A stretch of DNA of 64,000 nt from Candidatus Moraniibacteriota bacterium. Lineage in GTDB: Bacteria; Patescibacteriota; Minisyncoccia; Moranbacterales; UBA2206. Shown one piece after another: positions 4,872 to 57,924 of the stretch (position 1 is its first letter; the number at the start of each line of letters is the position of its first letter). The notes beneath the pieces were generated by a model. That model had not been told where the DNA came from, did not search any database, and saw only the letters and a program-made list of their open reading frames with translations. A program made the position numbers and the translations under genes. The stretch lies in assembly GCA_030645735.1 (NCBI GenBank), contig JAUSNP010000005.1:72151-136150 (forward strand). Reading direction: 5' to 3'.

Positions 4872-5795
4872 TTATTTTATAAACTTTGTCACTGCTTTTT
4901 GTATATCAGAATATTTGGTCAGCCAGAGAATTTTTTTGTCTTTTTGAAACCAAGTCATTTGGCGCTTGGCATAATCTTTTTCGGCCAGATAGACGCGTTC
5001 ATATAATTCTTCCAGAGTTATTTCTTCTCGCAGATATTTAGGAATCCAAAAATATCCCAAGCCAAAGCTTTGAATTTTTTTCCAACTCAATCCAACTTTG
5101 TGCAATTTTTGCACCTCTTCAAGCATGCCATCTTTCCATCTTTGATCAAGACGTTTTTTGATTTTGGCGTGCAGTTTTTCTTTGCCAGGGTTGATGCCGA
5201 TTTTCAAGGACGCATAACGTGGAACGTGGAGCGTGGAACGATTGTCTGGAACTCGGCCAACGGCTTGGCAGATTTCGATGGCACGAATGAGGCGCACTTT
5301 GTTTTTGGCATCGATGTTTTCAGCACGGCGAGTATCTAGTTTTTTGAGTTTGGTGAATAATTCTTCAGTCGATTTTGTTTCTAAATCTTTGCGTAGCTCC
5401 CAGTTTGGCGCAACCTCTGGATAAACAATATTATCAACCACTGCATCAATCCAAAAGCCAGTGCCACCGCACAAGATGGGCAGCTTTCCGCGTTTCAAAA
5501 TGTCTGCAATAGCCTTGTCAGCTTTCTTCTTGAACTGTGCCACGCTGAAATTGGTTCTCGGACTAACAACATCGATCATGTGATGATCTATGCCTTCTGA
5601 TAAAAACGTTCCACGTTCCACGTTCCACGTTCCAGGAATTTTTCCCGTGCCCACATCCATGCCGCGATAAATCTGGCGTGAATCTACTGAGACCACCTCA
5701 CCGTCAAATTTTTTGGCAAGCTCAATAGCCACCGCTGATTTGCCGGCTGAGGTTGGGCCTAATATTACGATAACTTTATTTAATTTATCTTTCAT
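4872..5795 (-). CDS. miaA: tRNA dimethylallyltransferase
   Basis: P-loop GPTSAGKSAVAIELAKKF...VSVDSRQIYRGMDVGTGK; 307 aa; adjacent to miaB. Confidence 0.9.
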   Translation of the reverse strand: MKDKLNKVIVILGPTSAGKSAVAIELAKKFDGEVVSVDSRQIYRGMDVGTGKIPGTWNVERGTFLSEGIDHHMIDVVSPRTNFSVAQFKKKADKAIADILKRGKLPILCGGTGFWIDAVVDNIVYPEVAPNWELRKDLETKSTEELFTKLKKLDTRRAENIDAKNKVRLIRAIEICQAVGRVPDNRSTLHVPRYASLKIGINPGKEKLHAKIKKRLDQRWKDGMLEEVQKLHKVGLSWKKIQSFGLGYFWIPKYLREEITLEELYERVYLAEKDYAKRQMTWFQKDKKILWLTKYSDIQKAVTKFIK

Positions 5796-5803
5796 ATACC
5801 CTT

Positions 5804-5904
5804 TGTCATTCCGGCCTTGACCCGGAATCTACTTACCGTAATTGCGAATTTAAATTTATCTCATGAATTATTGAGAAGGTCCCGGGTCAAGCCCGGGATG
5901 ACAG
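5804..5904. repeat. Miniature inverted-repeat element (TGTCATTSC-TIR family), copy 1, in the miaA-miaB spacer
   Basis: Left arm tgtcattccggccttgacccggaatc and right arm ggtcccgggtcaagcccgggatgaca are mutual reverse complements (one mismatch), and each arm is itself a hairpin. The same termini recur at 22708, 34004 (half copy) and 56685. Confidence 0.55.
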
Positions 5905-5911
5905 ATATTTT

Positions 5912-7279
5912 TTAAATTACTTTACCTTCGAGATTCCATATTTTGATGCTAGTTATTTTCACTTTCACAAACTGGCCAACTAAATTATCTTTATTGGATG
6001 AAATCTTAATATTTTTTCCAGTTCTAGTCTTGCCAAAATAAATTATTAGTTTTGATTCGTTGTTGATTTGTTTGTCATTCGCGAGTTGCTTTTTTTCAAT
6101 TAAAACTTCTTGCACGGTGTTGAGATATTTTTTGTTGTTGGCGAAAGTGGTCTTTTTCAAAATTTCATTCAGGAAGGCTTCACGTTTTTCTTTTTCAGCA
6201 TCTGAAACATTGTCTTTCATAGTCCAAGCTACGGTGCCAGGGCGGGGTGAATATTGGCCAAAGAACACCATGTCGAATTTGGCTTTTTCCATAATCTCAG
6301 CCGAGCACAAAAATTGTTTTTTGGTTTCGCCAGGGAAACCAACAATGATGTCAGAGGTCAAGGCAAAAGGCACGCCAGGTTTGTATTTTTTGAAAGCAGC
6401 TTTGATTTTGCGTACCAAATTCATATAATGTTTGGCAGTGTATTTGCGATTCATTTTTTGGATGACTTCATCTGAGCCAGACTGAACAGGCAGATGCACA
6501 GCTTCGCAAACTTTTTTGGATCTGGCAACAACTTCAATCAATTCATCCGACATATCCTTTGGGTGGGAAGACACAAATTGAATCCAAAACTTCCCTGGAA
6601 TCGCATCAATCTTTTTTAGCAACTGAGCAAAATTAATTTCTTGCGCTCCACGTTTTGCGTTCCACGTTCCACGATATGAATTTACATTCTGACCAAGCAG
6701 AGTGATAGATCTATAGCCAAGTTTAATCAGGCTTTTTATTTCATCAATTATTTCTTCGGCTGGTCGGGAAGTTTCGCGACCGCGAGCATAGGGGACGACG
6801 CAGTAGGAGCAGAAGTTGTTGCAGCCAGTCATGATGGGAACCTGCGCAGAGAATCTGGTTGTGTATTTTGGTTGTATTTTTAGATATTGATTCAAGCCAT
6901 CGTCAAAAGTAGTTTGTAGTTTGTAGTTTGTAGTTGGTAGAATTTTTTCAATTTCGCTTGGAAAGTTTTTGATTTCACAAAACAAATCAACATTGCCCTT
7001 GAGTCGTCTTTGCACGTCTTTGCGATTGGCAATACAGCCTGTCAGCACGATTAGCGGTCTACATTCCACGTTTTGTATTCCATGTTTCCTGAGGTTGTGA
7101 ATCAGGCTGTAGGCTCGGTTTTCAGCCGCCTGACGTACTCCACAAGTGTTGAAAATGACCAAGGAGGCCTCTGTCATGTCGGAAGCCGTCTGATAGCCCT
7201 TCTCGTCCAAAAAGCCCGCAATTCGCTCAGAATCCGAGATATTCATTTGACAGCCGAAGGTTTTAATGTAATATTTCAT
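5912..7279 (-). CDS. miaB: tRNA-i6A37 methylthiotransferase (radical SAM MTTase)
   Basis: MKYYIKTFGCQMNISDSE N-terminus, radical-SAM CNNFCSYC motif and a TRAM C-terminus; 455 aa. Confidence 0.9.
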   Translation of the reverse strand: MKYYIKTFGCQMNISDSERIAGFLDEKGYQTASDMTEASLVIFNTCGVRQAAENRAYSLIHNLRKHGIQNVECRPLIVLTGCIANRKDVQRRLKGNVDLFCEIKNFPSEIEKILPTTNYKLQTTFDDGLNQYLKIQPKYTTRFSAQVPIMTGCNNFCSYCVVPYARGRETSRPAEEIIDEIKSLIKLGYRSITLLGQNVNSYRGTWNAKRGAQEINFAQLLKKIDAIPGKFWIQFVSSHPKDMSDELIEVVARSKKVCEAVHLPVQSGSDEVIQKMNRKYTAKHYMNLVRKIKAAFKKYKPGVPFALTSDIIVGFPGETKKQFLCSAEIMEKAKFDMVFFGQYSPRPGTVAWTMKDNVSDAEKEKREAFLNEILKKTTFANNKKYLNTVQEVLIEKKQLANDKQINNESKLIIYFGKTRTGKNIKISSNKDNLVGQFVKVKITSIKIWNLEGKVI

Positions 7280-15277: not shown

Positions 15278-15317
15278 GATATTTTAATGTGTAATTTTTT
15301 TAATTAATTTTTTCTGT

Positions 15318-15438
15318 TAGATAAGTCTAAGGTCTAATATCTAAAGACTAAATGAAGTCTAAAATATTTAAGTCTAATTTCTTTTTACTTTATACTTTAG
15401 ATTTGTTTTAGTCTTTAGTCTTTGAAATTTAGACTTAT
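15318..15438. repeat. Palindromic array of AAGTCTAA/TTAGACTT motifs (locus A)
   Basis: The left half carries aagtctaa-type units and the right half the reverse-complement ttagtctt/ttagactt units around an AT-rich centre. The same architecture and motif recur at 17841 and 62976. Confidence 0.6.
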
Positions 15439-15665
15439 AAAAAATAAAAAAACCACTATTCTAAAAAATAGGGCTTATGCGTCAAAAACTAATAAAAACT
15501 TTTTCATATGATTGTCTCTTCCTTCATAGCCCGGATTGCTCACTGGGTTTTGCAAGGTAGATTGATATGAAACAAGTATAGCATGGTTTGGAAAATAAAA
15601 GAACCCGCTAGAGACACGCATGAAATGTTCTTCATGGGTCTAGCGGGTTCTGGCGGGCAGGAGCA

Positions 15666-18704: not shown

Positions 18705-21050
18705 ATGTTTCTCAAAAAATTAGAAATTTCAGGATTTAAATCTTTCGCCAACAAGACTTCGTTGGATTTTTCGATTTCTCACGATGGCGTGCGGGGCATC
18801 ACGGCAGTGGTTGGACCAAATGGCTCTGGCAAATCAAACATTGCTGATGCTTTGCGTTGGGTGATGGGTGAGCAGTCGATGAAAAATTTGCGTGGCAAGA
18901 AATCTGACGACATCATTTTTGCTGGTTCTGGAAAGAAAGCCCGTCTCGGTAGTGCGCAAGTAACTTTGTATTTCGACAATGCGGACAAAAAAATTCCTTT
19001 GGAATTTGACGAAGTTTCCATTACACGAAAAATATATCGCAGTGGTGAAGGTGAATATTTGATCAACGGTTCACGGGCACGTTTGCAAGACGTGGTGGAT
19101 ATTTTGGCTAAGGCTGGGATTGGCAAGGAAAGCTATTCAATTATCAATCAAGGTATGGCCGATGCAGTTTTGAATGCCACACCACTTGATCGTCGTTCAA
19201 TCATTGAAGAGGCAGCTGGCGTGAAGCAATATCAAATCAAGAAAGAAAGATCTTTGCGTAAACTGGATTCAACTCGTGAGAATTTGGACAAGGCGCGTAG
19301 TTTGGCCGAAGAAATCAAACCGCATTTGAAGATGCTCAAGCGTCAAGCGGAAAAAGCTTCTCAAAGTGAAGGGGTCATCAAAGAACTGCGGGAAAAACAA
19401 CTCACTTTGTATACCTATTTGTGGAACAATTTCCAACAAGAAAAAAACACTTTTAATCTTGCTAAGGAAGAAATGGGCCGCACGATGATGAATATGCAAC
19501 GTGATGTGGACAAATTGGCGGATGAGCTCAATCGTGAAGCGAAAGTGGATGAGGTGAATGTTGCGTTAGGAGAATTGGAAAAACAGAAAAGTGAAAAAAG
19601 AAATCAGCTCAATCAGCTTGATCGCGATTTGATTGTGACTGAAGGCCGCATTGAAATTGAAAAAGAAAAACAGAAGAACATTGAAATGATTGAGGAAATC
19701 AAGGTGCAAAGTATCCCAGTGGATTTGCACTATGTGCGCAAGGGTATTGAGGATATTCGCGCGGAACAAGAAAAATTGATTGCCCAAATTGAAAACGCTG
19801 AAAGCCTGGATGACTTGCAAGATATCAAAGAATTCGCCCGTTCCATCCAGCAACGATTGTTTGAACTCAAGGCAGATATTGAAAATGGCAAAAAAGATAA
19901 AAATGTTGTAGAGACGCCCCAACGGGACGTCTGTACGGCTAAACCAGTTGTGGTTGCAACGGTTGATTCAACGGCAATTATTGAATTCAAAGAAAAGACT
20001 ATCAAATTGCGTGAAGACATTGCCAAAATTGAAATTGAAATCAAAGACATCGAACAAAAAATTGAAGCCGAAATTCAAGCTGATCGACAGAAGCGACAAA
20101 AATTCTTTGAAGTGGAGAGAAGTTTCCGCGCCAAGCAGGAAGAGTTGAACAAAATGAAAGACCAGTTCAATGATTCCAAGGTGGCTTTGGCGCGTGTGGA
20201 GGTGCATGAAGAGGATTTGCGCGCGGATGTTTTGAAAGAATTGAGCTTGAATGTGGAAGAATTGAAACAAGAAATTTCACAAATTGATCGTGGACAATTG
20301 GAACGAGACATTACTCGGCTCAAGGGTCAGATGGAACAGATTGGTGGCATCGATCCGTTGGTGGTGGAAGAATATGAAGAAACCAACAAGCGTTTCGAAT
20401 TTTTGACCAAAGAGTCTGAGGATTTGGAGAATGCCATCGTGTCATTGCGAGAAATCATCAAGGAAATGGATCAAAAAATCAACGGTGAGTTTTCAGCAAC
20501 TTTTGAAGAAATCAACAAGGAGTTCACAAAATATTTCCGTATCATCTTTGGTGGTGGCAATGCCAGTTTGAAAAAAGTTGAGGTTAGAAAACGATCATAC
20601 AAATCCAAAGATGAAGTTGAAGGTGGTGCCGAAGAAGGTGAGGAGTTGCCAATTGAAACTGAAGAGGAACGACGAGAAAAATCAGATATTGGGATTGACA
20701 TCTCGGCTTCACCTCCGGGCAAGAAAATTAGCAACCTCTCAATGCTTTCTGGTGGCGAAAGATCATTGACTTCGTTGGCCTTGCTCTTTGCTATCATTGC
20801 GCACAATCCACCGCCATTTGCGGTTTTGGATGAAGTTGAAGCTGCTTTGGACGAGGCCAATTCCAAGCGCTTTGGCCGTATCATTCAAGAGCTTTCAGGC
20901 AGCACGCAGTTTGTGACCATCACGCACAATCGTGAAACTATGCGCCAAGCTTCAGTTTTGTATGGCGTGACAATGGGTGATGAAGGAATCTCCAAGCTCT
21001 TGTCAGTTCGTTTGGACCAAGTTGGTCAAGGAGGTCGAATTTTGCAATAA
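18705..21050 (+). CDS. smc: SMC-family chromosome segregation ATPase (unusually short, 781 aa)
   Basis: N-terminal Walker A GPNGSGKSN, long coiled coil, C-terminal LSGGERSLTSLALLFAI...AVLDEVEAALD signature/Walker B; no obvious canonical hinge. Confidence 0.8.
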   Translation: MFLKKLEISGFKSFANKTSLDFSISHDGVRGITAVVGPNGSGKSNIADALRWVMGEQSMKNLRGKKSDDIIFAGSGKKARLGSAQVTLYFDNADKKIPLEFDEVSITRKIYRSGEGEYLINGSRARLQDVVDILAKAGIGKESYSIINQGMADAVLNATPLDRRSIIEEAAGVKQYQIKKERSLRKLDSTRENLDKARSLAEEIKPHLKMLKRQAEKASQSEGVIKELREKQLTLYTYLWNNFQQEKNTFNLAKEEMGRTMMNMQRDVDKLADELNREAKVDEVNVALGELEKQKSEKRNQLNQLDRDLIVTEGRIEIEKEKQKNIEMIEEIKVQSIPVDLHYVRKGIEDIRAEQEKLIAQIENAESLDDLQDIKEFARSIQQRLFELKADIENGKKDKNVVETPQRDVCTAKPVVVATVDSTAIIEFKEKTIKLREDIAKIEIEIKDIEQKIEAEIQADRQKRQKFFEVERSFRAKQEELNKMKDQFNDSKVALARVEVHEEDLRADVLKELSLNVEELKQEISQIDRGQLERDITRLKGQMEQIGGIDPLVVEEYEETNKRFEFLTKESEDLENAIVSLREIIKEMDQKINGEFSATFEEINKEFTKYFRIIFGGGNASLKKVEVRKRSYKSKDEVEGGAEEGEELPIETEEERREKSDIGIDISASPPGKKISNLSMLSGGERSLTSLALLFAIIAHNPPPFAVLDEVEAALDEANSKRFGRIIQELSGSTQFVTITHNRETMRQASVLYGVTMGDEGISKLLSVRLDQVGQGGRILQ

Positions 21051-22707: not shown

Positions 22708-22807
22708 TGTCATTGCGAGCGACTGAAAGGAGCGCGGCAATCCCATGATTCGTGCATCAGAACTAGAGATTGCCACAGTCGTTCTGCGGAACTCCTTCGC
22801 AATGACA
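22708..22807. repeat. Miniature inverted-repeat element (TGTCATTSC-TIR family), copy 2
   Basis: Termini ctgtcattgcgag...ctccttcgcaatgacaa; internal inverted repeat gcggcaatc...gattgccac. Confidence 0.55.
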
Positions 22808-25689: not shown

Positions 25690-26022
25690 ATGTCTAAAAT
25701 AACGGCATTTTTACTCGCGATAGCTCTATCAGTTATTACTGTACTTGCGGACTATTTCATCAAGGAGGCATCATTGAAAACTTCAGTTTGGAGCAAAGCG
25801 CTCTTAGTAGGGAGTTTGATTTATGGGCTGACAGGTCTTGGATGGGTGTTTGTCACGAGACACATGAAACTTTCAACTCTGGGTGTTGTCTACGGAGTAA
25901 GTTGTATAAGTTTATTGGTTCTAGTGAGTGTGTTTACATTTAATGAGAAAATAACTACTATAGAAATTTTTGGAATCATTCTCGGCATGAGTTCTATTAT
26001 AATTTTATATAGATTTGCTTAA
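25690..26022 (+). CDS. Small 4-TM membrane transporter, SMR/DMT-like
   Basis: 110 aa, four hydrophobic helices, EmrE-like size and architecture. Confidence 0.45.
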   Translation: MSKITAFLLAIALSVITVLADYFIKEASLKTSVWSKALLVGSLIYGLTGLGWVFVTRHMKLSTLGVVYGVSCISLLVLVSVFTFNEKITTIEIFGIILGMSSIIILYRFA

Positions 26023-26069
26023 TTTAAAAGCGCCCTTGAGGGGCGCCTTTAAATTTGATTGGGTTGGGG
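26021..26069. repeat. 49-bp direct repeat, copy A (terminator hairpin plus flank)
   Basis: aatttaaaagcgcccttgaggggcgcctttaaatttgattgggttgggg; 48/49 identical to 27544-27592. Confidence 0.7.
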
Positions 26070-26207: not shown

Positions 26208-27428
26208 ATGAGCATAAAGGCCATTATAGTGAAAATCCTTCCTGCATTTAAAGGACGGAATTATCGCCTCCATGTTTGGGGACAATTAATCTCATCTTCC
26301 GGCACTTGGCTTCAAAATGTCACCATGGGCTGGTACATTTGGGATCTGACTCATTCGGAGAGTCTAACTGCTTTGATTTTGGCAATGCCACGCTGTGTCA
26401 GCGCATGTCTGACGATATTTGGAGGAATAATTTCAGACAAGTTTGACAAGAGAGCAGTGCTATATGTCACTAATTTTCTGGGCATGGCACAAGCGATGTT
26501 ACTGGGCTATATGGTAATTAATAATGTTTCGCGTATATGGATTGTTATATTACTTTCCATTTGCTTGGGACTAATTAATGCCATTGACGGACCGGCTCGC
26601 CATTCTTTTCTCCCTGAAATTGTTGACCGAACTGAAATAAGACAAACGAGTTCGTTTAATTCCGCCATCGGTCAGTCGTCTCAATTTGTCGGTTCGAGTC
26701 TTGGCGCAGTGCTACTTGGATTAATCGGAACTGGCTGGACATTTGTCTTGAACGGTCTATCATTTATGGCTGTTATAATTATGCTTAGGATGATGAAAAT
26801 CGACAAGAAAACGGAGATTAGGAAAGACCAGAATAACTATTTCAGGATGTTTAAGGAGGGCGTGGCATATGTCGCTCGTCAACCAAAGATTCGCTGGTAT
26901 CTGGTACTTATTGGAAGTCTAAATTTTTTCGGCTTTTCATACCGAGGGATACTTCCTGTCGTAGTTGAGCAAATTTTTCATTCCGGGGCGAAAAATTATG
27001 CAGTGCTTATGGCTTGTGCCGGAATAGGTGCTCTTATCGGATCCACATTGTCCTCAGCAAAATCAAAGATTTCATTGAATTTTTTTGTTGTTTGCGGAAG
27101 CTTGATTGTTGGTTCCGCATTAATCCTGTTTACTTTGACATCTGTTTTTATACTGGGCATGTCGCTTATGTTTGCTGCAGGTTTCGGTTTAACCCTAAGC
27201 TCATCTAGTGTGCGAGGGGAGTGTCAGGAAGTGATGTCATCGGATATGCGAGGCAGAGTCAATGGCTTTGTTATGATGTTTGCGCTCGGTGGCACAGGTC
27301 TTGGAGGCATAGTAACGGGAAAATTAGCAGAGCTATTTGGAAGCCAATTAGCGCTGATAGTAAGCGGCGTTATGCTGATTATTATCGCCATCATTGTTTT
27401 TGTATTAGACAGGCTTTCAAAACATTAA
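26208..27428 (+). CDS. MFS transporter (EntS/macrolide-efflux-like)
   Basis: 406 aa, about 12 TM segments, MFS-type motifs; SD AGGAG upstream; terminator hairpin GTCCTTTCC...GGAAAGGAC at 27470-27498. Confidence 0.8.
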   Translation: MSIKAIIVKILPAFKGRNYRLHVWGQLISSSGTWLQNVTMGWYIWDLTHSESLTALILAMPRCVSACLTIFGGIISDKFDKRAVLYVTNFLGMAQAMLLGYMVINNVSRIWIVILLSICLGLINAIDGPARHSFLPEIVDRTEIRQTSSFNSAIGQSSQFVGSSLGAVLLGLIGTGWTFVLNGLSFMAVIIMLRMMKIDKKTEIRKDQNNYFRMFKEGVAYVARQPKIRWYLVLIGSLNFFGFSYRGILPVVVEQIFHSGAKNYAVLMACAGIGALIGSTLSSAKSKISLNFFVVCGSLIVGSALILFTLTSVFILGMSLMFAAGFGLTLSSSSVRGECQEVMSSDMRGRVNGFVMMFALGGTGLGGIVTGKLAELFGSQLALIVSGVMLIIIAIIVFVLDRLSKH

Positions 27429-27543: not shown

Positions 27544-27592
27544 AATTTAAAAGCGCCCTTGAGGGGCGCCTTTAAATTTAATTGGGTTGGGG
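27544..27592. repeat. 49-bp direct repeat, copy B, abutting the tRNA-Gln 3' end
   Basis: Near-identical to 26021-26069; the last bases overlap the acceptor 3' end of the minus-strand tRNA. Confidence 0.7.
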
Positions 27593-30727: not shown

Positions 30728-30866
30728 TTTATTTTTTTTGATTTGTTTTTATTTTATATATAAATTATACAATCATTTTACTAGGCATGCAAGGCTTGCT
30801 CGGGTGTGGATAACATAATATAATAGAATCGTTGAGAAGATGTGGGTTTATATTTTCTAAAAAAAT

Positions 30867-31190
30867 ATGACTAATCAAAATTGTTGGGAATTCAAAAAAT
30901 GCGGACGAGAAATCGATGGCGCCAATGTTGATAAGTATGGAGTTTGTCCAGCCGCGGACAATGTTTCAGCAGATGGATTTTGCGGTGGCAAAAATGGCGG
31001 GCGCGCTTGTGTGTATATTATTGGTACGCTATGCGATGGCATTTGCCAGGTGTCACTGCGCAACAAAGAAAAAAAATGTGAAGAATGTGAATTCCACAGC
31101 CAACTCAAAAAAGAACATCCAGATGAAATGAACATTTTTGCCTATTTGGATTATGTAAACAAAGACAAGAAAAAGTTGAGTGAAAAATAG
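30867..31190 (+). CDS. Cysteine-rich small protein (9 Cys; CWEFKKCG...CEEC)
   Basis: 107 aa; Cys at 6, 11, 27, 39, 48, 56, 60, 71, 74; lysine-rich C-terminus; GTGTGGATAAC motif 50 bp upstream. Confidence 0.5.
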   Translation: MTNQNCWEFKKCGREIDGANVDKYGVCPAADNVSADGFCGGKNGGRACVYIIGTLCDGICQVSLRNKEKKCEECEFHSQLKKEHPDEMNIFAYLDYVNKDKKKLSEK

Positions 31191-31345
31191 TTTCAGCATC
31201 AGCGTTTGAGGCAGGGAATTGAACCCTGTTTTTTTGTTGACAAAGCTCATGGTTTTGCTAGGATTATCGTCAGCAGCAGTACCTTAAACTAGTTTAGCTA
31301 ATAGCTAAATATAATCTAATAAAAGTCAGAAAGGGAGATGCGGTC

Positions 31346-31879
31346 ATGACGAAATACTTGCTAGATAACTATGCATGGTCTTGTTTGGCTTTTGGCTTGA
31401 TTGCTTTTCTGTGCTTGGATGGGTGGATTACTAAATTTATTCATGCTATGAGTGAGCGGTTTCAACAGAAGTATGGTTGGGACAATATGCTGTTGGCAAA
31501 ATACTTAGCCGGAGCGCTTATGTCCATCTGGATTTTTATTGCTTTGGTGGCGACATTGTCGGATTTGCGAACGCTAGTGCTAAACATGTGTGTGGCTGGG
31601 TTGCTTAGTATCCCACCAGCCTCCCTTCTGCTTCTGGGCAAAAAGGCAAGAGGTAACTCATTATCTGCAAAAGTAATGCTTATTATTTTTAAGCAAATCC
31701 TTTGGATAGCTTTGATTGCGGTCGTCAGGATAAACTACATTGAAGAACAGCCACTGCAATGGGTTGCAATCATGGCGTTGGGAGTAATCGCCTTGATTGG
31801 TATTATCTATCTGGTTGCTCCAATCAACAAGAAATGCACGGACAATTTGCCGTGCCGTTATCCGGGAATTTCTGCTTGA
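31346..31879 (+). CDS. Hypothetical membrane protein
   Basis: 177 aa, 4-5 hydrophobic helices; SD GGGAG; GC elevated; GC-rich terminator hairpin at 31906-31950. Confidence 0.5.
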   Translation: MTKYLLDNYAWSCLAFGLIAFLCLDGWITKFIHAMSERFQQKYGWDNMLLAKYLAGALMSIWIFIALVATLSDLRTLVLNMCVAGLLSIPPASLLLLGKKARGNSLSAKVMLIIFKQILWIALIAVVRINYIEEQPLQWVAIMALGVIALIGIIYLVAPINKKCTDNLPCRYPGISA

Positions 31880-32040
31880 CCATGCTCAGGCGCGCGCCAC
31901 CCCAAAGCCCGACCTTGTTTTCACAAGAGGTTGGGCTTTTCTTATTATTTGACGCGCTGATTATTTCTTGTTATTCTGCATCAATGCCAAACTTGGCATA
32001 CAGATTGTTCTTACTAATAATTTTAGATTGAGGGGGTGAG

Positions 32041-32376
32041 ATGGCAGAGACAATAATTAGAACATTTGAAGATCTGGTCAAGCTAATTATGTTGGGCAAT
32101 CCCGATCCAGCAGCTGGAGGGCTTGTGCTATTAGATCGCCAGCTCTGGAATCAACGCTGGGTCAAGTGTTCGATTTATCTGGGCGATGATAGCCCTGATG
32201 TGCTGTTGAGCGATTCTGCTGATAAAAATATTCGCACGACTAGCGAGGGAGGAGTTGAGCTGAGGGTCAATATGCTAGTTGATCAACATAAAAAGTTAAT
32301 CGTGTATAAGGTCGAAGCAGACGGCCGACCCAGAAAGTTCATTTGGGAGATGGACTATAAAAAGAGTAGCAAATAA
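32041..32376 (+). CDS. Hypothetical protein
   Basis: 111 aa; SD GGGGGTGAG; GC elevated. Confidence 0.4.
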   Translation: MAETIIRTFEDLVKLIMLGNPDPAAGGLVLLDRQLWNQRWVKCSIYLGDDSPDVLLSDSADKNIRTTSEGGVELRVNMLVDQHKKLIVYKVEADGRPRKFIWEMDYKKSSK

Positions 32377-32663
32377 ATATTTGCTGCCACCACACGCGGG
32401 GTGCTTCTTTATGAGGCGCCCCTGTTTTTTATGTTTAAAAATAATTTTTTTAGGATTTGAAACCGAAGTGGCAATTTTTGGGTGATTGACACAAATTGCA
32501 TAGTTTTCTAAGATATAAATATCAAGAAGTAATTCAAGTTCTTTAATCCCCACTGTGGGGTTTCGCAAATGCGAAATAACAAAGCCGAAAAGGAGGCGGC
32601 GAAGTCTAGTCTAGTTTTTTTGTGAGAGGTAAAATAAAATAAATCTCAACAAAAAGCGAGGCA

Positions 32664-33110
32664 ATGATGGAACAGATTAAATTGATGAAGCATAAGCTTT
32701 TATCGGCGCTGATGGCAGCACTCGTTCTCTTGTCCGGTGGATTCGTTGCATCTGCAACCGCCGTGCCTAATGGCGTGACGGGATTGGCGACAAATGCCCT
32801 GGTGGTGATGCCCAACACCGAGAAGGGACAAATCGCGGCTACTTCACATGACGCTGGCGTCATCATGTTGCTCATGGCCAAGGCGGGTCCGGCAGATCAG
32901 GAGGGTCTCGACCAGCGGAGTCTGGGGAATGACTCCTGGGGCGACAAGGTGATGGTCAAGGACGGATCGGCGGCCGACTGGGAACATCTCGGCAAAGCGG
33001 GCGGTCAATGGGTGGCCCATGGTTCATCCCGCAGTATCTATAAGGCGATGGCAGTGCAGGTCGGCGATCAGATCAACTACAGCGGCAAGGTCGAGAGCGC
33101 CATCATCTGA
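32664..33110 (+). CDS. Secreted hypothetical protein (signal peptide) of strongly elevated GC
   Basis: Signal-like N-terminus MKHKLLSALMAALVLLSGGFVASATA; about 58% GC; GC-rich terminator (ATAGCCAGA...TCTGGCTAT+T6) at 33149-33197. Confidence 0.55.
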   Translation: MMEQIKLMKHKLLSALMAALVLLSGGFVASATAVPNGVTGLATNALVVMPNTEKGQIAATSHDAGVIMLLMAKAGPADQEGLDQRSLGNDSWGDKVMVKDGSAADWEHLGKAGGQWVAHGSSRSIYKAMAVQVGDQINYSGKVESAII

Positions 33111-33237
33111 TTCCCGGGCGAATCCCTCAACACAAGCTACACTCGTGGCAAACATAGCCAGAGCCCTCATCCGGGGGTTTCTGGCTATCTTTTTTATTTA
33201 AAGAAATTTTAGTGTTCCTAATGGAGCGCTTTTTTAT

Positions 33238-33840
33238 TTGCCCAAAGCTGGGTTTTGGAATAAAATTTTTAGTAGAATACAAAATAAAAATAATTTCAAA
33301 AACAAAAACATGGGCGAGCCTGCTTATAAAAATCTTTTGACTTACAAATATGCCGTGCTTATTTATGATATGAACAAAGAATTCATCGCACGATTTGTTT
33401 CTGGGGCAGAAAACATGAGGCAACGTCAACAGATGGACCAAGCGGCACGCTCATCCAAACAATGCATCGTCGAAGGCGCGATGCAGGGCACGAGTCTCAA
33501 GGGTTATATCAAAATGCTTGGAGTTTCGCGAGGGAGTTGGGAGGAATTGCTGGAGGATTATAAGGATATTGCCAGGCTTGGGAAAATTGAGGTTTGGAAT
33601 TCTGAGGGGTTGAGGAGGGAAAGGGGGTTCAGGGTTTTCGTGAAAGACAACGAACCTCTACCTCCTACACCTCCGCTACCTCCTGACTTCGCTGTGTCGG
33701 TCAACATTATGATTGATCTCATCACAAGGACAAACTTTCTTCTGGATCAACAAAAAAGAGCGCTAGAAGAAAAGTTTTTGAGAGAGGGTGGTTACACTGA
33801 AAATTTGTACAAAAAACGCAGAGAAACGAGAGGGTTTTAG
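33238..33840 (+). CDS. Four-helix-bundle protein (23S rRNA intervening-sequence protein family-like); real start probably MGEPAYK
   Basis: The segment YKYAVLIYDMNKEFIARFVSGAENMRQRQQMDQAARSSKQCIVEGAMQGTSLKGYIKMLGVSRGSWEELL matches the general pattern of the family; terminator at 33862-33888. Confidence 0.45.
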   Translation: MPKAGFWNKIFSRIQNKNNFKNKNMGEPAYKNLLTYKYAVLIYDMNKEFIARFVSGAENMRQRQQMDQAARSSKQCIVEGAMQGTSLKGYIKMLGVSRGSWEELLEDYKDIARLGKIEVWNSEGLRRERGFRVFVKDNEPLPPTPPLPPDFAVSVNIMIDLITRTNFLLDQQKRALEEKFLREGGYTENLYKKRRETRGF

Positions 33841-34003
33841 TTTGTAATATTGAATATCCAGCAGCCTTGTTAGGGCTGTTTTTTTGTCGCTCGACCTGTG
33901 GATAACTCGCCCTTGCCAATGTGGGTGAGTGGAGTAAAATAGGGAGGTAGGTAACTCAAGTGGTACATTGTGGGGATTCACAATTAGATACTACTGAATA
34001 AGC

Positions 34004-34047
34004 GCGAGATTGCCACGTCGTCCGCGGCGGACTCCTCGCAATGACAA
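34004..34047. repeat. Half copy (right arm) of the TGTCATTSC-TIR element family
   Basis: gagattgccacgtcgtccgcggcggactcctcgcaatgaca is about 85% identical to the right arm of copy 2 (22766-22807); no left arm detectable. Confidence 0.45.
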
Positions 34048-34052
34048 TAAAG

Positions 34053-34487
34053 ATGTTCATAGGCGAATACCAACATTTAGTTGACGAGAAAAAAAGATTG
34101 GCGGTGCCAAGCAAGTTTCGAGTCGAGTTGAAAAACAAAGTTGTGGTGACACGCGGACTTGATAAATGTTTGTTTGTCTATCCAATGAAAGCTTGGGAAG
34201 AGTTGGCCAGCAAATTGGGAACCTTGCCAGTCGGAGAAGCTGGCACCCGAAGTTTCACGCGTTTGATGTTGGCTGGAGCAGTGGATGTGGATGTGGACAA
34301 GCAAGGAAGAATTTTGATTCCAGATTATTTGAAAGAATATGCAGGACTGGCGAAAAATGTTGTGATTGCAGGACTGTATAATCGTTTAGAAATTTGGGAT
34401 GAAAAGAAATGGAACGCATACAAGAAAGGTGCTGAGAAAAATTCAGATGAGATTGCGGAACAGTTGGGCAAGTTAGGAGTATATTAG
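34053..34487 (+). CDS. mraZ: Transcriptional regulator MraZ
   Basis: MFIGEYQHLVDEKKRLAVPSKFR and a second SpoVT/AbrB-like repeat; the ORF-track start at 34041 would overlap the repeat element, so the ATG at 34053 is preferred. Confidence 0.85.
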   Translation: MFIGEYQHLVDEKKRLAVPSKFRVELKNKVVVTRGLDKCLFVYPMKAWEELASKLGTLPVGEAGTRSFTRLMLAGAVDVDVDKQGRILIPDYLKEYAGLAKNVVIAGLYNRLEIWDEKKWNAYKKGAEKNSDEIAEQLGKLGVY

Positions 34488-34488
34488 G

Positions 34489-34610
34489 AAATTCAAAATC
34501 CAAAATCTCAAATTCCAAATAAATACAAATATCAAAATCCAAAATGTTTTGAGTTTAGAAAATTGTAATTTTGAATTTATTTGGGATTTGTAATTTATAA
34601 TTTGTAATTT
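34489..34610. repeat. Palindromic array of AAAATCCAAAAT-type motifs (mraZ-rsmH spacer)
   Basis: Left half aaatccaaaat/aaatctcaaattccaaat repeats; right half the reverse-complement attttgaattt/atttgggattt units. The architecture matches the AAGTCTAA arrays with a different unit. Confidence 0.5.
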
Positions 34611-34612
34611 AG

Positions 34613-35551
34613 ATGGTTATTCATAAACCGGTTTTGTTGAAAGAAAGTATAGAACGATTAAATTTGAAATCTGAGTCCATTGCTGTGGACGCCACTCTGG
34701 GGGGAGGCGGACACAGCATTGGCATGTTAAATATAATTGGCAGAAGTGGAAAGCTCGTTGGTATCGATCAGGACACAGTGGCGGTGGAAAATTTCCGACA
34801 GAAAAATTCCGCGGACAATGTGATTTTGGTCAAAGACAATTTCGCTAATCTGAAAAATGTTTTGACAGAATTTGGTCCGCCAGCTGGCGGAGAAAAAGTA
34901 GATGCGATTCTGGCTGACCTAGGATATTCTTCCATGCAATTGGAAGACACAGGGATTGGCATGAGTTTTCTGCAAGATGCGCCATTGGACATGCGCCTTG
35001 ATCGTGATGGTAAGTTGTCTGCTAAGGCGGTAGTCAACACCTATTCACAAGGCGAGTTGAGCAGGCTTATCAAAAATTTTGGCGAAGAAAGATTTGCCAG
35101 TATCATTGCCAAGCGAATTGTGGATGCTCGCAAGAAAAAAGAAATTGAGACGACCACTGATTTGGTGGAAATCATCAACACGGCTATTCCAGAAAAATTC
35201 AAGCACGGCAAACTGCATCCAGCCACTAAAACATTTCAGGCATTGCGCATCGAAGTCAATCATGAATTGGAGGTTCTGGAAAAATTCATTCCGCAAGCAA
35301 TTGAAGCATTGAATCCGGGCGGACGATTGGCCATCATTTCATTTCATTCATTAGAAGACAGAATAGTTAAGGATATATTTCGGACACATGCTAGGGGATG
35401 CATCTGTCCAGCTGATTTTCCGATTTGCCAATGTGGCCAAATGGCGAAGGTCAAAATCATCACTAAAAAACCAGTTGAGCCAAGCGTTGAGGAGATTGCA
35501 GAAAATCCGAGATCACGCAGTGCCAAACTGAGAGTTTGTGAGAAGTTATAA
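34613..35551 (+). CDS. rsmH: 16S rRNA (cytosine1402-N4)-methyltransferase
   Basis: HKPVLLKESIERL...DATLGGGGHS; MraW family; 312 aa. Confidence 0.9.
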   Translation: MVIHKPVLLKESIERLNLKSESIAVDATLGGGGHSIGMLNIIGRSGKLVGIDQDTVAVENFRQKNSADNVILVKDNFANLKNVLTEFGPPAGGEKVDAILADLGYSSMQLEDTGIGMSFLQDAPLDMRLDRDGKLSAKAVVNTYSQGELSRLIKNFGEERFASIIAKRIVDARKKKEIETTTDLVEIINTAIPEKFKHGKLHPATKTFQALRIEVNHELEVLEKFIPQAIEALNPGGRLAIISFHSLEDRIVKDIFRTHARGCICPADFPICQCGQMAKVKIITKKPVEPSVEEIAENPRSRSAKLRVCEKL

Positions 35552-35665
35552 TCCCAGTTAAATAGCCAGCTACGCTGGCCTGTCCACTACGGAGACAGAA
35601 TTTAACGGGATAAAAAACAAACATAAATATAAACAAACAATTTATTGTCAGGGGGCTGAAAATAA

Positions 35666-39475: not shown

Positions 39476-39567
39476 TTGACGCCTGCGCCCCCACACTAAC
39501 TTTGCATTGGCCTGTGGCCATCACCTTTGGTGATATGCAAGGTTAGTGTGGGGGTGTGGATAACTTT

Positions 39568-39598
39568 TTGACATACAAAATCAAAATGGGTGTATAAT
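39568..39598 (+). promoter_or_regulatory. Sigma70-type promoter (TTGACA-19-TATAAT, TG-extended)
   Basis: ttgaca at 39568 and tgtataat at 39591-39598; preceded by a long imperfect hairpin (39487-39558) and a GTGTGGATAAC box. Confidence 0.45.
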
Positions 39599-39764
39599 AT
39601 AGATAGTAGAAAAGAAAAATAAATACACAATTGAATAGGGGGAAATCAAAGTCGCACTTTGAAAACAAAAGACAGTTTCTTGTGATAGGATATTGTCTTT
39701 TGTTTTTTTACAGAGGTCAAAACAAAAACCAAAACCAACAGCAAAACAACGAGGGAGGAGAAAA

Positions 39765-39929
39765 ATGTCTGGACATAGAATAGACGTAGTTCCCGAGGAA
39801 GTTTTGAGCAGGAAGAAGGCTGCTTTGGCTGCTTTGGAGCATGGCTTAACTGGAGATATCAGTAAAGAAGATCTTCGTAAAGCCAGGCGGGTTTTTATTG
39901 AACAAAATTGTCGTGGTGCGGAACATTGA
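39765..39929 (+). CDS. Hypothetical small protein (54 aa; MSGHRIDVV...)
   Basis: SD GGGAGGAG 6 nt before the ATG; the ORF-track start at 39693 is less likely. Confidence 0.35.
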   Translation: MSGHRIDVVPEEVLSRKKAALAALEHGLTGDISKEDLRKARRVFIEQNCRGAEH

Positions 39930-40116
39930 AATATTCCAGCGCCAAACAGCCCCAGAGAAACTTCATCAACATATTGAATCTAATATGTCGAAATTTCTCC
40001 GGGGCTCTATTTTTTTTGTAATAAATATTTTTAGGCGAAATAAAAAAAGGACCGACGAGCAGAAGTTGCTGTTGTCGATCCTTTCATCTAAAAATGTTCT
40101 TCAACTCGAATTATCC

Positions 40117-40566
40117 TTATCTGAAAATTGGTCTGTCCAGGAAAAAGTTTTTCCCTGGTCTGCCTTTTCTTAGCATGCCTATGCATTGGCCTGGTGCATC
40201 GACGACGATAACCACGAGTTCTTGAATATGGTTTTTACCAATAACCATATACTGGACTCCTGATGCGAGACATTCCCAGAGTTGGCCACTGATGTATACC
40301 CCAGTATTCACGGGGCGGATACCTTCCTGTAACCGAAAGGTCCGGCACTTTAAGTCGTTTTTAGGCAAAAGACCAGCATACATTTCTGGTCGCGTGCCAA
40401 CAAAGTTCAACAAACCAGACCAAGTTAATCGCATGACTCGAGTCATAAGATATCCTTTTGCAAGAGGTTGATAAATAAGAACTACGCCAAATAAAACTGC
40501 CTGCAGTATTGCATCAATTTGCAAAAATGTCAATTTAAAATGCTCACCCTTTGATTTTTTTCTCAA
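40117..40566 (-). CDS. Truncated bacterial sugar transferase (PglC/WbaP-type phosphoglycosyl transferase with the central catalytic region missing); possible pseudogene
   Basis: N-terminal TM followed directly by LNFVGTRPE...IRPVNTG, resembling the C-terminal (M)SxVGPRP...RPGITG motifs, with no KFRTM-type middle region; minus-strand terminator at 40040-40090. Confidence 0.4.
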   Translation of the reverse strand: MRKKSKGEHFKLTFLQIDAILQAVLFGVVLIYQPLAKGYLMTRVMRLTWSGLLNFVGTRPEMYAGLLPKNDLKCRTFRLQEGIRPVNTGVYISGQLWECLASGVQYMVIGKNHIQELVVIVVDAPGQCIGMLRKGRPGKNFFLDRPIFR

Positions 40567-40698
40567 CTCGTGTAAACTAGTTTTAGGCTCAAAGTGTGCC
40601 AGATTAGTGTTGTGTATGGCCTCATCGTCTAGCGGCTAGCCCGCCTCGCATCGACGAGCGGTCGTCTCCGCGAGTCGAGGCGGGGACGCTAAACAATT

Positions 40699-40947
40699 AT
40701 GGCAATATTTATCTATCAATTAATTAGCGAAGATAGAACGAAAACATATATTGGCTTTTCGGATGATTTAGATAGAAGAATTTCTGAACATTTAGCTGGT
40801 AAGGTAAAAACAACAAAGAATTTCGGTGAGTTTAGCCATAGAATTTTAGAGAAAGTTAATGATATCAGGTTAGCTAGAATTGCTGAAAAATATTGGAAAT
40901 CAGCATCTGGCAGGAAAAAATTAAAAGAACAGTTTGATGTAGAATAG
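40699..40947 (+). CDS. GIY-YIG nuclease superfamily small protein
   Basis: IFIYQLISEDRTKTYIGFSDDLDRRISEHLAG: GIY...YIG, conserved Arg and E/H; 82 aa; resembles free-standing UPF0213/Slx1-like GIY-YIG proteins. Confidence 0.7.
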   Translation: MAIFIYQLISEDRTKTYIGFSDDLDRRISEHLAGKVKTTKNFGEFSHRILEKVNDIRLARIAEKYWKSASGRKKLKEQFDVE

Positions 40948-40954
40948 GAAACAT

Positions 40955-41029
40955 GCCGCCATCGTCTAGCCCGGTCAGGACGCCAGGTTCTCATCCTGGA
41001 AATCAGGGGTTCGAATCCCCTTGGCGGTA
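40955..41029 (+). tRNA. tRNA-Glu (anticodon CUC)
   Basis: GCCGCCATCGTCTAGCCCGGTCAGGACGCCAGGTTCTCATCCTGGAAATCAGGGGTTCGAATCCCCTTGGCGGTA: 7-bp acceptor, Glu-type D-arm TCGTCTAG, anticodon loop TTCTCAT, T-loop GGTTCGAATCC. Confidence 0.8.
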
Positions 41030-56684: not shown

Positions 56685-56763
56685 TGTCATTCCCGCGTAG
56701 GCGGGAATCTAGGGTAGAAACTTAATGATGCATGACTGGATTCCCGTTTCCACGGGAATGACA
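56685..56763. repeat. Miniature inverted-repeat element (TGTCATTSC-TIR family), copy 4, just upstream of mnmA
   Basis: tgtcattcccgcgtaggcgggaatc ... gattcccgtttccacgggaatgaca; same arm architecture as copy 1. Confidence 0.55.
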
Positions 56764-56772
56764 ATTATACAA

Positions 56773-57924
56773 ATGAAAAAAATGGCAAAAAAACCTAGAG
56801 TAATTGTGGGTATGTCCAGTGGAGTTGATTCTTCGGTGGCAGCGGCGCTTTTGAAAAAACAGGGCTTTGATGTCGTGGGGGTTTTTATGCATTTTTGGAA
56901 AGAACCGACACAAGATAGTTTAATTGAAAACAAATGTTGTTCCTTGGAATCCTTGGAAGATGCGCGCAAAGTGTGTCAGATTTTGGGTATTCCGCTCTAC
57001 ACAGCTAATGCTGAGAAAGAATTCAAGAAAGAAGTGGTGGACTATTTTTTGCAAGAATATGCCGAAGGGAGAACTCCCAATCCATGTGTGGCCTGCAATG
57101 AGCACATCAAGTTTCATGTGTTGATGAAGAAAATGTTGGAAATGGAAGGGGATTACATCGCTTCAGGGCATTATTCAATTAATGAAATGGGCAAGGATGG
57201 AAAATATCATCTGTTCCAGGGCAAGGATGAAGAAAAAGATCAGTCTTATTTTTTGTATAATTTCAATCAAAAGCAATTGGCGAAAATTTTGTTTCCAGTC
57301 GGGAAATATAAGAAGCTGGAGATTCGAAAAATTGCTGAGAAATTGAAGTTGCCAGTTTTCAACAAAGATGATTCACAAGGCTTATGTTTCACGCCGGAAA
57401 AATATCCAGAAAACTTTTTGCGCCGAAATTTGCAATTGAAAAAAGGCAAAATTCAAAACACCGCTGGCAAAGTGGTGGGTGAGCATGATGGTTTGCCACT
57501 CTACACCATTGGCCAAAGACGCGGCATCAATATCGGAGGCGACGGTCCATATTTTGTAGTGGGCAAAGATTTGACCAAAAACATTTTGATTGTGACTAAT
57601 GATGAAAAAGATCCAAATCTGGTTTGCTCGCAAATGCAGGTGGAAAAGGTCAATTGGATTGTTTCCGAACCGAAATTGCCTTTGAAAATATTGGTCAAAA
57701 CCCGATACCGGCATCAGGCGGTTTCTGCTATAATAGAAAGCGTAGAACGTGGAACGCAAAACGTAAAACGTAAAATGCAGGATGCTGGGCGATCCACGAT
57801 CAACGATCCACGATCAACGTATACAGTCGTGTTTGATGAACCGCAGCGGGCAATTTCACCAGGGCAGTCGGCAGTTTTTTATACTAAACAAGGCGAAATG
57901 ATTGGTGGTGGCAGAATAATCTAA
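56773..57924 (+). CDS. mnmA: tRNA-specific 2-thiouridylase
   Basis: PP-loop VIVGMSSGVDSSVAAALL, catalytic Cys, C-terminal VVFDEPQRAISPGQSAVFY; the ORF-track start at 56725 lies inside the repeat element, so the ATG at 56773 is preferred; contains an approximately 19-aa repeat-encoded insertion. Confidence 0.88.
   Translation: MKKMAKKPRVIVGMSSGVDSSVAAALLKKQGFDVVGVFMHFWKEPTQDSLIENKCCSLESLEDARKVCQILGIPLYTANAEKEFKKEVVDYFLQEYAEGRTPNPCVACNEHIKFHVLMKKMLEMEGDYIASGHYSINEMGKDGKYHLFQGKDEEKDQSYFLYNFNQKQLAKILFPVGKYKKLEIRKIAEKLKLPVFNKDDSQGLCFTPEKYPENFLRRNLQLKKGKIQNTAGKVVGEHDGLPLYTIGQRRGINIGGDGPYFVVGKDLTKNILIVTNDEKDPNLVCSQMQVEKVNWIVSEPKLPLKILVKTRYRHQAVSAIIESVERGTQNVKRKMQDAGRSTINDPRSTYTVVFDEPQRAISPGQSAVFYTKQGEMIGGGRII

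Follow-up and report, generated by a model that had tools for sequence, protein, structure and literature searches.

The genomes of bacteria of the candidate phyla radiation (CPR) are tiny, and a host-attached life is generally assumed for these organisms. How they vary their small stock of accessory genes, and at which sites, is therefore of interest. The locus considered here raises this question for a member of Candidatus Moranbacteria, represented by a metagenome-assembled genome (MAG). The stretch analysed, referred to as the window, comprises 64,000 nucleotides of a 142.6-kb contig, with NCBI proteins MDO8240910-921 encoded around the locus. Five small open reading frames (ORF1 to ORF5), all annotated by NCBI in the source MAG (MDO8240913-917), lie between the gene hyp247 and mraZ of the dcw cluster; all five are on the plus strand, and both the ORF listing and this annotation agree with an earlier note, made from the letters of the window, that they are co-directional. 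The same note had taken the interval 30795-33900 for a composite island, a candidate for lateral acquisition, possibly from a donor of high G+C content. Is this what the five genes are? The analysis reported below favours another answer, namely that positions 30815-33896 are the present filling of a strain-variable accessory-gene slot between the divergent hyp247 and the mraZ/dcw promoter, a reading to which a probability of about 0.7 is assigned.

Boundaries and contents of the slot

Relatives of the locus were gathered via the two-CW protein encoded by ORF1, the hyp247 cluster and the MraZ cluster. They have a common layout, with DnaX-GtrA-hyp247 on the minus strand, a gap, and then MraZ-RsmH-FtsL-PBP on the plus strand. 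Among the contigs with both flanks, L021 is the one most closely related to the window; in it DnaX is 93.6%, RsmH 91%, hyp247 88% and MraZ 96.5% identical to the window counterparts and the synonymous divergence (dS) of the flanking genes is 0.4-0.76. All five genes are missing from L021, where the filling is 0 bp and hyp247 is joined directly to the mraZ promoter, the two genes being 142 nt apart. In a blastn comparison of the window with L021, positions 30738-30814 and 33897-35631 align to overlapping positions of L021, and the overlap consists of 10 nt, TGTGGATAAC, found as a single box in L021 and twice in the window. In the latter it forms a perfect 10-bp direct repeat on the plus strand, at 30805-30814 and 33897-33906, and bounds the segment on both sides. 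The left boundary is supported by the empty-site comparison and by a comparison of left flanks, in which the window, L002, L005 and L021 cease to align directly after the box. The interval proposed earlier was thus close, the real boundaries being the boxes and the unit being 30805-33906, with a length of 3092 bp from box to box.

Other relatives carry quite different sets of genes at this place. The filling of L002, L003 and L004 (5501 bp) encodes an acylphosphatase, the two-CW protein, a CDF transporter, an acetyltransferase, proteins of 121 and 137 aa, a HAD protein, a TPR-like protein of 261 aa and a homologue of ORF5. That of L005 (8417 bp) comprises genes for superoxide dismutase (SOD), the two-CW protein, an acetyltransferase and hydrolases together with small ORFs, and that of L024 (4802 bp) encodes SOD, a 221-aa protein, CDF, HTH_17, Fic, a 201-aa protein, DUF3892 and a 44-aa protein. 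In L027 and L028 (3025 bp) a ClpP-like protein, a C39-like peptidase and AntA are encoded. The box, with 0-1 mismatch, stands at both ends of every occupied slot (L002 to L004, L005, L024, and L027 and L028). On the right side the box, the mraZ promoter and the terminator just 5' of the box are kept in the window, L018, L002 and L005, and the same box, terminator tail and promoter sequence are also visible in L024 and L027. The view that the interval is accessory DNA is borne out both by its absence from L021 and by the variety of these fillings.

Contigs L002, L005, L024 and L027 serve as outgroups, with DnaX or hyp247 75-80% identical to those of the window and dS saturated in L002 and L005, the two for which it was measured. 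All outgroup slots are filled, and so is that of L018, which is closer still to the window at the right flank (dS 0.25-0.40); the occupied slot is therefore taken as ancestral. The state of L021 would then be explained most simply by a precise loss between the two boxes, while repeated site-specific gain is a possible alternative.

Several points weigh against the slot as interpreted here. For the event in L021, the direction was deduced by parsimony from a small number of contigs. The slot contains neither a recombinase or transposase gene nor a tRNA gene, so that no mechanism for precise gain or loss is visible, and a 10-bp repeat makes a poor substrate for spontaneous deletion when its copies are separated by 3 kb. 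Neither the two-CW gene nor ORF5 is a universal anchor, since both are lacking in L024 and L027 and the latter is lacking in L005. In addition, the family to which the GC-rich allele of ORF4 belongs consists of only two members in 15 billion proteins.

The core of the box, TGTGGATAA(C), is a perfect DnaA-box sequence (TTATCCACA / TGTGGATAA). Three perfect boxes are present in the 64 kb, against 0.47 expected, and all are on the plus strand. The right slot box stands 6 nt 5' of the -35 element of the conserved mraZ promoter (-35 TTGCCA, 33913-33918; -10 TAAAAT, 33935-33940; plus strand), and the left slot box lies within the spacer of a putative ORF1 promoter recognised by reading the sequence (-35 TTGCTC, 30796-30801; -10 TATAAT, 30819-30824; plus strand). 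We infer that the box is probably a promoter-proximal protein-binding site which has also acted as a recombination breakpoint. A replication origin, suggested by DnaA boxes at a switch of gene orientation, was considered and rejected, because GC skew is positive across the whole window.

Alternatively, the boxes could be att cores, corresponding to attL and attR in filled slots and to attB in L021, on which a recombinase encoded elsewhere acts in trans to exchange cassettes in an integron- or island-like manner. Identical 10-bp direct repeats exactly at the breakpoints, reduced to one copy in the empty site, are what such a system would produce. The same pair of boxes is used by five different fillings, some of which contain mobile-element cargo (HTH_17/Xis-like and Fic in L024; AntA in L027), and a large serine recombinase is encoded beside dnaX in L005. 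However, a recombinase was found inside none of the slots examined, and profile searches with the five ORFs of the window gave no match to one. No boxes were seen between individual genes in the slots examined, and no internal repeats beyond terminator tails mark sub-cassettes within the slot. The third perfect box of the window stands upstream of a promoter without a partner, although an indel of 1.3 kb follows it, and a perfect DnaA box at a fixed distance from the mraZ -35 points to a regulatory site. Site-specific integration at att cores is accordingly regarded as unlikely. It is quite unlikely, too, that the boxes are true recombination sites of a dedicated cassette-exchange slot by the mraZ/dcw promoter, served by a recombinase in trans or by a DnaA-box-dependent mechanism. 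In that case the slot would allow small genes for envelope and stress functions to be exchanged with precision, among them the secreted ORF4, whose mature domain would be exchangeable.

The variable slot favoured here resembles integration hot spots and genomic islets in its kept core flanks, strain-variable content, empty site, direct repeats and occasional mobile cargo. It differs from them in its mostly native composition and in its repeat, which is the DnaA-box sequence of promoter regions. Of the hallmarks of integrase islands, the direct repeats and the single copy in the empty site are present; there is no integrase inside, no transposase, and no tRNA target, the nearest tRNA genes being at 27583 and 40955.

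Two sets of observations concern exchange of DNA around the slot. MraZ of L002 (11154-11588) and L005 (15808-16242) is 100% identical at the protein level, with dS 0.39, whereas DnaX and hyp247 of these contigs are only 76-78% identical (dS >2), which suggests recent cross-lineage recombination at the mraZ end of the slot. In the groundwater lineage represented by L014-L017 (5001-8866), a resolvase-type recombinase is encoded directly 3' of the two-CW gene, and next to it comes a string of small ORFs resembling a mobile element. Together with the serine recombinase of L005, this is a hint that mobile DNA may land near this gene neighbourhood.

The third perfect TGTGGATAAC box, at 39555 after murE (region 39530-39600), is located 3 nt 5' of a TTGACA...TATAAT promoter and shares its extended form, GGGTGTGGATAAC, with the box at the left end of the slot. 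Between this promoter and tRNA-Glu there is about 1.3 kb of extra DNA (39594-40955) in the window relative to L021, with an 82-aa ORF (40699-40947) that is GIY-YIG-like by eye. In L027 and L029 a gene with a Pfam GIY-YIG match and other genes occupy the place of this extra DNA, so that the region beside the 39555 box may be a second variable slot.

Composition of the filling and the secreted-protein gene

Composition was assessed against 35 long genes of the window as a host reference, with a GC content of 0.415±0.027 (range 0.359-0.478) and a third-position GC (GC3) of 0.419±0.043. To correct for amino-acid content, each ORF was recoded with host codon usage and z was computed against the recoded versions. 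ORF1, ORF2, ORF3 and ORF5 have native codon usage (|z| <=1.4; z=0.6 for ORF3). Of the shift in G+C across the ORFs described in the earlier note, only that of ORF4 stood: after correction this gene alone has foreign codon usage (z=5.4-6.7), with GC 0.570 against 0.494 expected (z=5.9) and GC3 0.685 against 0.48 (z=5.4). The figure of about 58% G+C given for the secreted ORF in that note was also correct, the value being 57% against 41.5±2.7% in host genes. About half of the excess is due to the Gly/Ala-rich protein, and the other half is a real anomaly at synonymous sites.

ORF4 (32664-33110, plus strand) encodes 148 aa, or 147 aa from the second ATG, and its product is predicted to be Sec-secreted. 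Its stretch of high GC, at about 32700-33190, begins inside the signal peptide and stops at the terminator, a G+C-rich hairpin AGCCAGA...TCTGGCT followed by a T-run (33156-33196, plus strand), which had likewise been correctly recognised. The mature part has GC 0.60 and GC3 0.72, and the GC of the three codon positions (0.60/0.43/0.685) agrees with the annotated frame.

Homologues of ORF4 are exceedingly few. A word-indexed search of 5.8 billion proteins returned no relatives, and an HMMER scan of 1.84 billion representatives gave one true homologue, P0165 (128 aa), encoded on L018. A search of JGI metagenomes with a 20-nt leader pattern, aimed at further alleles, gave only the contig already known, and no donor homologue appeared in protein, plasmid or viral-database searches. 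A phage or defence origin was rejected for lack of PHROGs or PADLOC matches, and a plasmid origin of ORF4 for lack of plasmid matches; for ORF3 and ORF4, the apparent IMG/VR hits are short, are due to chance and run antisense to the long ORFs of those sequences or in another frame.

The two ORF4 alleles have much in common outside the mature domain. They share a predicted signal peptide, which in the window allele covers about residues 1-32 with cleavage after A-T-A. ORF4 is preceded by a promoter (TTGACA-17-TAAGAT, 32486-32514) and a hairpin-rich leader of about 140 nt, the whole occupying 32486-32663 on the plus strand, and the region from promoter to the start of the signal peptide is 82% identical by blastn between the window (32475-32746) and L018 (616-893). 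In the pairwise alignment, inspected by eye, the two leader cores are almost identical, and the leader fold has z=-2.8. A riboswitch or other known RNA was rejected in the absence of an Rfam match. The conservation of the leader is not special, because it equals the background similarity of the two strains. The mature parts are homologous (E=7e-6) and about 38% identical, differing in length and composition; their internal indels are multiples of 3 in the coding alignment, and a terminator follows the L018 homologue at the equivalent place. Codon usage of the L018 allele is ordinary (z=1.6). Since the GC-rich part is homologous to this host-like allele, any donor of it must have carried the same rare gene family. 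On these comparisons ORF4 appears to be a mosaic: its promoter, leader and signal peptide are native, whereas its mature domain was acquired from a source of higher G+C.

The local G+C of ORF4 rises abruptly to 58-64% in a genome of 41%, and with homologues almost absent such a feature might also arise from an assembly chimera or contamination. Two assemblies made independently, the NCBI MAG contig and the Logan contig L001, nevertheless contain the identical sequence, and the ORF is continuous across both composition boundaries. The homology of the GC-rich part to the L018 allele, its in-frame indels and the equivalent position of the terminator end likewise make an artefact highly improbable.

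Contig L018 also bears on the neighbours of ORF4. Its gene order is ORF2 homologue, ORF4 homologue, a gene for a 116-aa signal/anchor protein, ORF5 and MraZ. ORF2 (31346-31879, plus strand) encodes a predicted membrane protein of 177 aa with about five hydrophobic segments, counted by reading the sequence, and a C-terminal NKKC-x5-C motif; no family match was found in Pfam, NCBIfam, PHROGs or PADLOC. The ORF2 proteins of the window and L018 have the same length and are 53% identical (dS 1.34; ratio of nonsynonymous to synonymous divergence, dN/dS, 0.25), and ORF2 is under purifying selection. The ORF4 proteins are 40% identical (dS 1.37), whereas the flanking proteins are 97-98% identical, with dS 0.40 for ORF5 and 0.25 for MraZ. 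Judged by these dS values, the alleles of ORF2 and ORF4 are much older than the surrounding DNA, which speaks for recombination having replaced the alleles, and not for rapid change in place alone. ORF3 (32041-32376, plus strand), a soluble ORFan of 111 aa, matched only itself among the 5.8 billion proteins of the word-indexed search. It is absent from L018, where the homologues of ORF2 and ORF4 adjoin, and thus appears to be a strain-specific insertion between the two.

A functional reading of these data, compatible with the slot model, is that ORF2 and ORF4 form a co-diversifying pair. The secreted ORF4 product would act as an effector, bacteriocin-like toxin or surface ligand, and its partner ORF2 would be a small multi-pass membrane protein for immunity or a receptor. 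Both genes occur in the same order in the window and L018 and are far more diverged than the flanks; ORF2 is constrained, and ORF4 keeps its leader and signal peptide while its mature part varies. On the other hand, this pattern is seen in two alleles only, each gene is a transcription unit of its own and ORF3 intervenes in the window, and neither matches a toxin, immunity or defence family in the four collections named above. With dS saturated, no positive selection is demonstrable, and the structural model of ORF4 (pLDDT 34) is unusable. A functional pair of this kind is therefore quite doubtful.

In mycoplasma variable lipoprotein genes and conserved-leader bacteriocin precursors, a conserved 5' region or signal peptide is combined with a variable protein. 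ORF4 is similar to these in keeping its promoter, leader and signal peptide beside a variable mature part, the comparison being limited to the two alleles. Unlike them, it has neither a lipobox nor tandem repeats, there are no silent cassettes and there is no invertible element, and the window encodes neither a transporter nor a peptidase dedicated to it.

The cysteine-rich ORF1 and the four-helix-bundle ORF5

The family of ORF1 (30867-31190, plus strand; 107 aa) had not been recognised at first reading of the window. It proved to be the two-CW domain family NF045718 of NCBIfam, matched over profile positions 1-80 of 80 with E=6e-24 and 84.2 bits, well above the curated cut-off of 35. The nine cysteines (positions 6, 12, 27, 39, 48, 56, 60, 71 and 74) and the Lys-rich tail described previously are indeed present. 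There are 1096 homologues at E <=0.001; among the best 120, most stand alone at about 100 aa and come from Nitrospirae, Omnitrophota, Deltaproteobacteria and unclassified bacteria. In Asgard archaea the domain is also found in tandem, in proteins of about 186 aa. In an alignment of 63 sequences, C6, W7, C12, C27, C48, C71 and C74 are invariant and C56 is found in 62, so that ORF1 has all seven family-conserved cysteines (C6, C12, C27, C48, C56, C71 and C74). At the second 'CW' site ORF1 has C48-V49, and tryptophan occurs there in 7 of the 63 members, mostly the tandem Asgard forms; the second Cys-Trp motif is thus no general feature of the branch to which ORF1 belongs, and its absence leaves the HMM match valid. 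ORF1 thus resembles other members in its N-terminal NCWEFKKCGRE motif and its stand-alone length of about 100 aa, and differs from them in two extra cysteines (39 and 60) and the Lys-rich tail.

An AlphaFold2 model of ORF1 has a pLDDT of 89, with a loop-rich N-terminal part of 60 residues followed by three helices, and neither a profile search nor Foldseek against the PDB found a solved structural relative. The earlier suggestion of a secreted peptide, or one resembling ribosomally synthesised and post-translationally modified peptides (RiPPs), was rejected, because no signal peptide or transmembrane segment was seen on reading the sequence by eye, the whole 80-aa domain is conserved across phyla, and no radical-SAM enzyme or peptidase adjoins the two-CW gene in six contexts tabulated with Pfam annotations. 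The domain also folds confidently in the model, and neither the leader/core architecture nor the maturase expected of a RiPP precursor was found; the neighbours of the two-CW gene differ in every lineage examined. Based on the seven conserved cysteines, a loop-rich fold of the metal-stabilised type and occurrence in groundwater and sediment lineages, which are presumably mostly anaerobic, ORF1 is tentatively viewed as a small cytoplasmic metal-binding protein, most likely for Fe-S or zinc and perhaps a redox sensor, although the odds of this are somewhat below even. No paper on the 'two-CW domain' was found by name. The domain is widespread and uncharacterised, with seven cysteines and a confident predicted fold that has no solved relative.

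The two-CW gene is found at the left slot end in the window, L002 and L005. Its divergence from the outgroup copies (dN 0.23, dS saturated) is similar to that of the flanking core genes, as would be expected if the gene descended vertically and was lost in L021, L024 and L027. Among GTDB genomes only distant matches (51-56%) in other phyla were obtained, and there were no plasmid matches.

ORF5 (33310-33840, plus strand) encodes 176 aa from an ATG, or 200 aa from an upstream TTG. Its assignment to the four-helix-bundle proteins in the earlier note is upheld by a match of residues 153-198 to the four helix bundle suffix domain TIGR04258 (51.8 bits against a cut-off of 40; E=5.5e-14), a family by which NCBI also names the protein. 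The bundle itself scores below the curated cut-offs of TIGR02436 (20.8 against 24 bits; 3.4e-4) and PF05635 (21.1 against 33.8 bits; 3.6e-4), and is separated from the suffix domain by a Pro-rich linker. A weak match (E=0.066) to the pentameric four-helix-bundle protein of PDB entry 2GSC includes the signature motif AARS..-IVEGA...-Y..ML..SRGS.EEL. ORF5 is probably a distant member of the superfamily of four-helix-bundle proteins that includes the 23S-rRNA intervening sequence (IVS) proteins and Avd; PF05635 and Avd are regarded as homologous (PMC10053308).

ORF5 resembles this superfamily in its suffix domain and in the alignment of its core motif to 2GSC. Unlike genes of IVS proteins, it lies between ORF4 and the mraZ promoter in a window that contains no rRNA, and unlike Avd it is accompanied by no reverse transcriptase and no pair of template and variable repeats in the 64 kb. 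A diversity-generating retroelement, in which an Avd-like ORF5 would serve a hypervariable secreted protein, was accordingly rejected: there is no template repeat, no repeat of ORF4 or of any neighbour in the 64 kb, and no stop-free reading-frame segment of the window contains the Y-x-D-D motif of reverse transcriptases.

The earlier note had further placed ORF5 among the debris of insertion events. This does not hold, because the gene is kept just before the mraZ promoter in other contigs, with 97.7% identity in L018 and 93% in L002, L003 and L004, and its dN/dS is 0.036-0.037 with dS like that of mraZ. ORF5 is thus a constrained, functional gene under strong purifying selection, present as a single copy fixed beside mraZ in part of the clade and missing from L005, L021, L024 and L027.

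Transcription, repeat elements and turnover of the slot

Terminators are predicted 3' of ORF1 (31208-31239), ORF3 (32398-32432), ORF4 and ORF5 (33860-33887), and a terminator hairpin 3' of ORF2 (31904-31949) was found by reading the sequence. Besides that of ORF4, promoter-like sites occur 5' of ORF2 (31237-31264) and ORF3 (31993-32021), all these features being on the plus strand. The description of all five ORFs as led by Shine-Dalgarno (SD) sequences holds for ORF2 (AAGGGAG), ORF3 (GAGGGGGTGAG) and ORF4; ORF1 and ORF5 have A-rich leaders without one on reading. Because each ORF has a terminator and ORF2 to ORF4 have their own promoter-like sites, the five genes are predicted to be separate transcription units with no operon, and would not constitute one system.

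The motif TGTCATTSC, a half copy of which had been taken to end the island, is real and over-represented in the window (7 matches, 1.7 expected). Palindromic elements of about 100 nt at 22708-22807 and 56685-56763 have it at their ends. The half copy of the palindromic TGTCATTGCGAG... element, for which no strand was assigned, is found at about 34008-34046; it resembles the right arm of the full copy at 22708-22807 by eye, blastn giving only a 13-nt exact core. It lies outside the coordinates proposed for the island and beyond the right box, and corresponds to a 29-column gap of L018, L002 and L005 in the alignment of mraZ leaders. Since it stands between the mraZ promoter and the mraZ start, where it overlaps an upstream candidate ATG, it is a separate, small and strain-specific insertion and not the end of an island.

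With this, the proposal of one composite island from a high-G+C donor, with host-interaction cargo and insertion debris at its end, can be weighed as a whole. It is correct that the interval is missing as a whole from L021, that ORF4 is compositionally foreign in its mature part, that ORF2 and ORF4 encode envelope proteins and that ORF3 and ORF4 are near-orphans. Against it, four of the five genes have native codon usage. ORF1 occupies the same place in the outgroups L002 and L005 with a divergence matching the flanks, ORF5 is syntenic with mraZ in L018 and L002 to L004 at dN/dS ≈0.04, the order ORF2-ORF4-ORF5 recurs in L018, the GC-rich part of ORF4 has a host-like homologous allele, and the half element belongs to the mraZ leader. 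A single imported island is thus largely refuted by synteny and composition and is considered very unlikely.

For the variable slot, turnover may instead follow three routes. Deletion or insertion would have its breakpoints at the repeated box; alleles from more distant lineages might enter by homologous replacement; and small insertions, such as ORF3 and the half repeat element, could be added. In ORF4, the mature domain would have been replaced by a divergent allele of higher G+C behind native export signals.

Several other repeats were observed in the window. The palindromic elements at 22708-22807, 56685-56763, 5804-5830 and 20440-20448 end in TGTCATTGC or TGTCATTCC and are of two types, ...TGTCATTGCGAG...CTCGCAATGACA and TGTCATTCCCGC...GGGAATGACA; they are intergenic and resemble small hairpin (REP/MITE-like) repeats. 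A literature search for the repeat element and for the CWEF motif of ORF1 found nothing relevant. In the mraZ leader, two GTGG[GT] repeats 10 nt apart (AAGTGGTACATTGTGGGG, 33955-33980) lie 3' of the -10 element and are kept in the window, L018, L002 and L005. They resemble the repeats of published MraZ operators and are probably the autoregulatory site of the mraZ operon. A palindromic repeat of 49 nt (AATTTAAAAGCGCCCTTGAGGGGCGCCTTTAAATT) has copies, 98% identical, at 26021-26069 and 27544-27592, which bracket a 1.5-kb segment with a gene for 406 aa (26208-27428); tRNA-Gln directly adjoins the second of them. Short arrays built from the heptamer CGTTCCA (and its complement) occur between genes or at gene ends, at 5593-5637, 6644-6674, 57741-57820 and 5211-5240. 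Just 3' of a dnaE-like gene, a pair of 60-nt inverted repeats (15308-15451), 75% complementary, is rich in TAGACT/AGTCTA.

As an accessory-gene hot spot the locus belongs to a well-known type, and it overturns no current ideas. Its points of interest are the DnaA-box-like boundary repeats, a member of a widespread and unstudied Cys-rich family, and the mosaic secreted-protein gene ORF4, in which native expression and export signals appear joined to a compositionally foreign mature domain. For CPR bacteria it represents a clean and well-bounded case, in which at least six different fillings and one empty site have their two core flanks and the 10-bp box in common, and it is usable for studying gene turnover in uncultured lineages straight from metagenomes.

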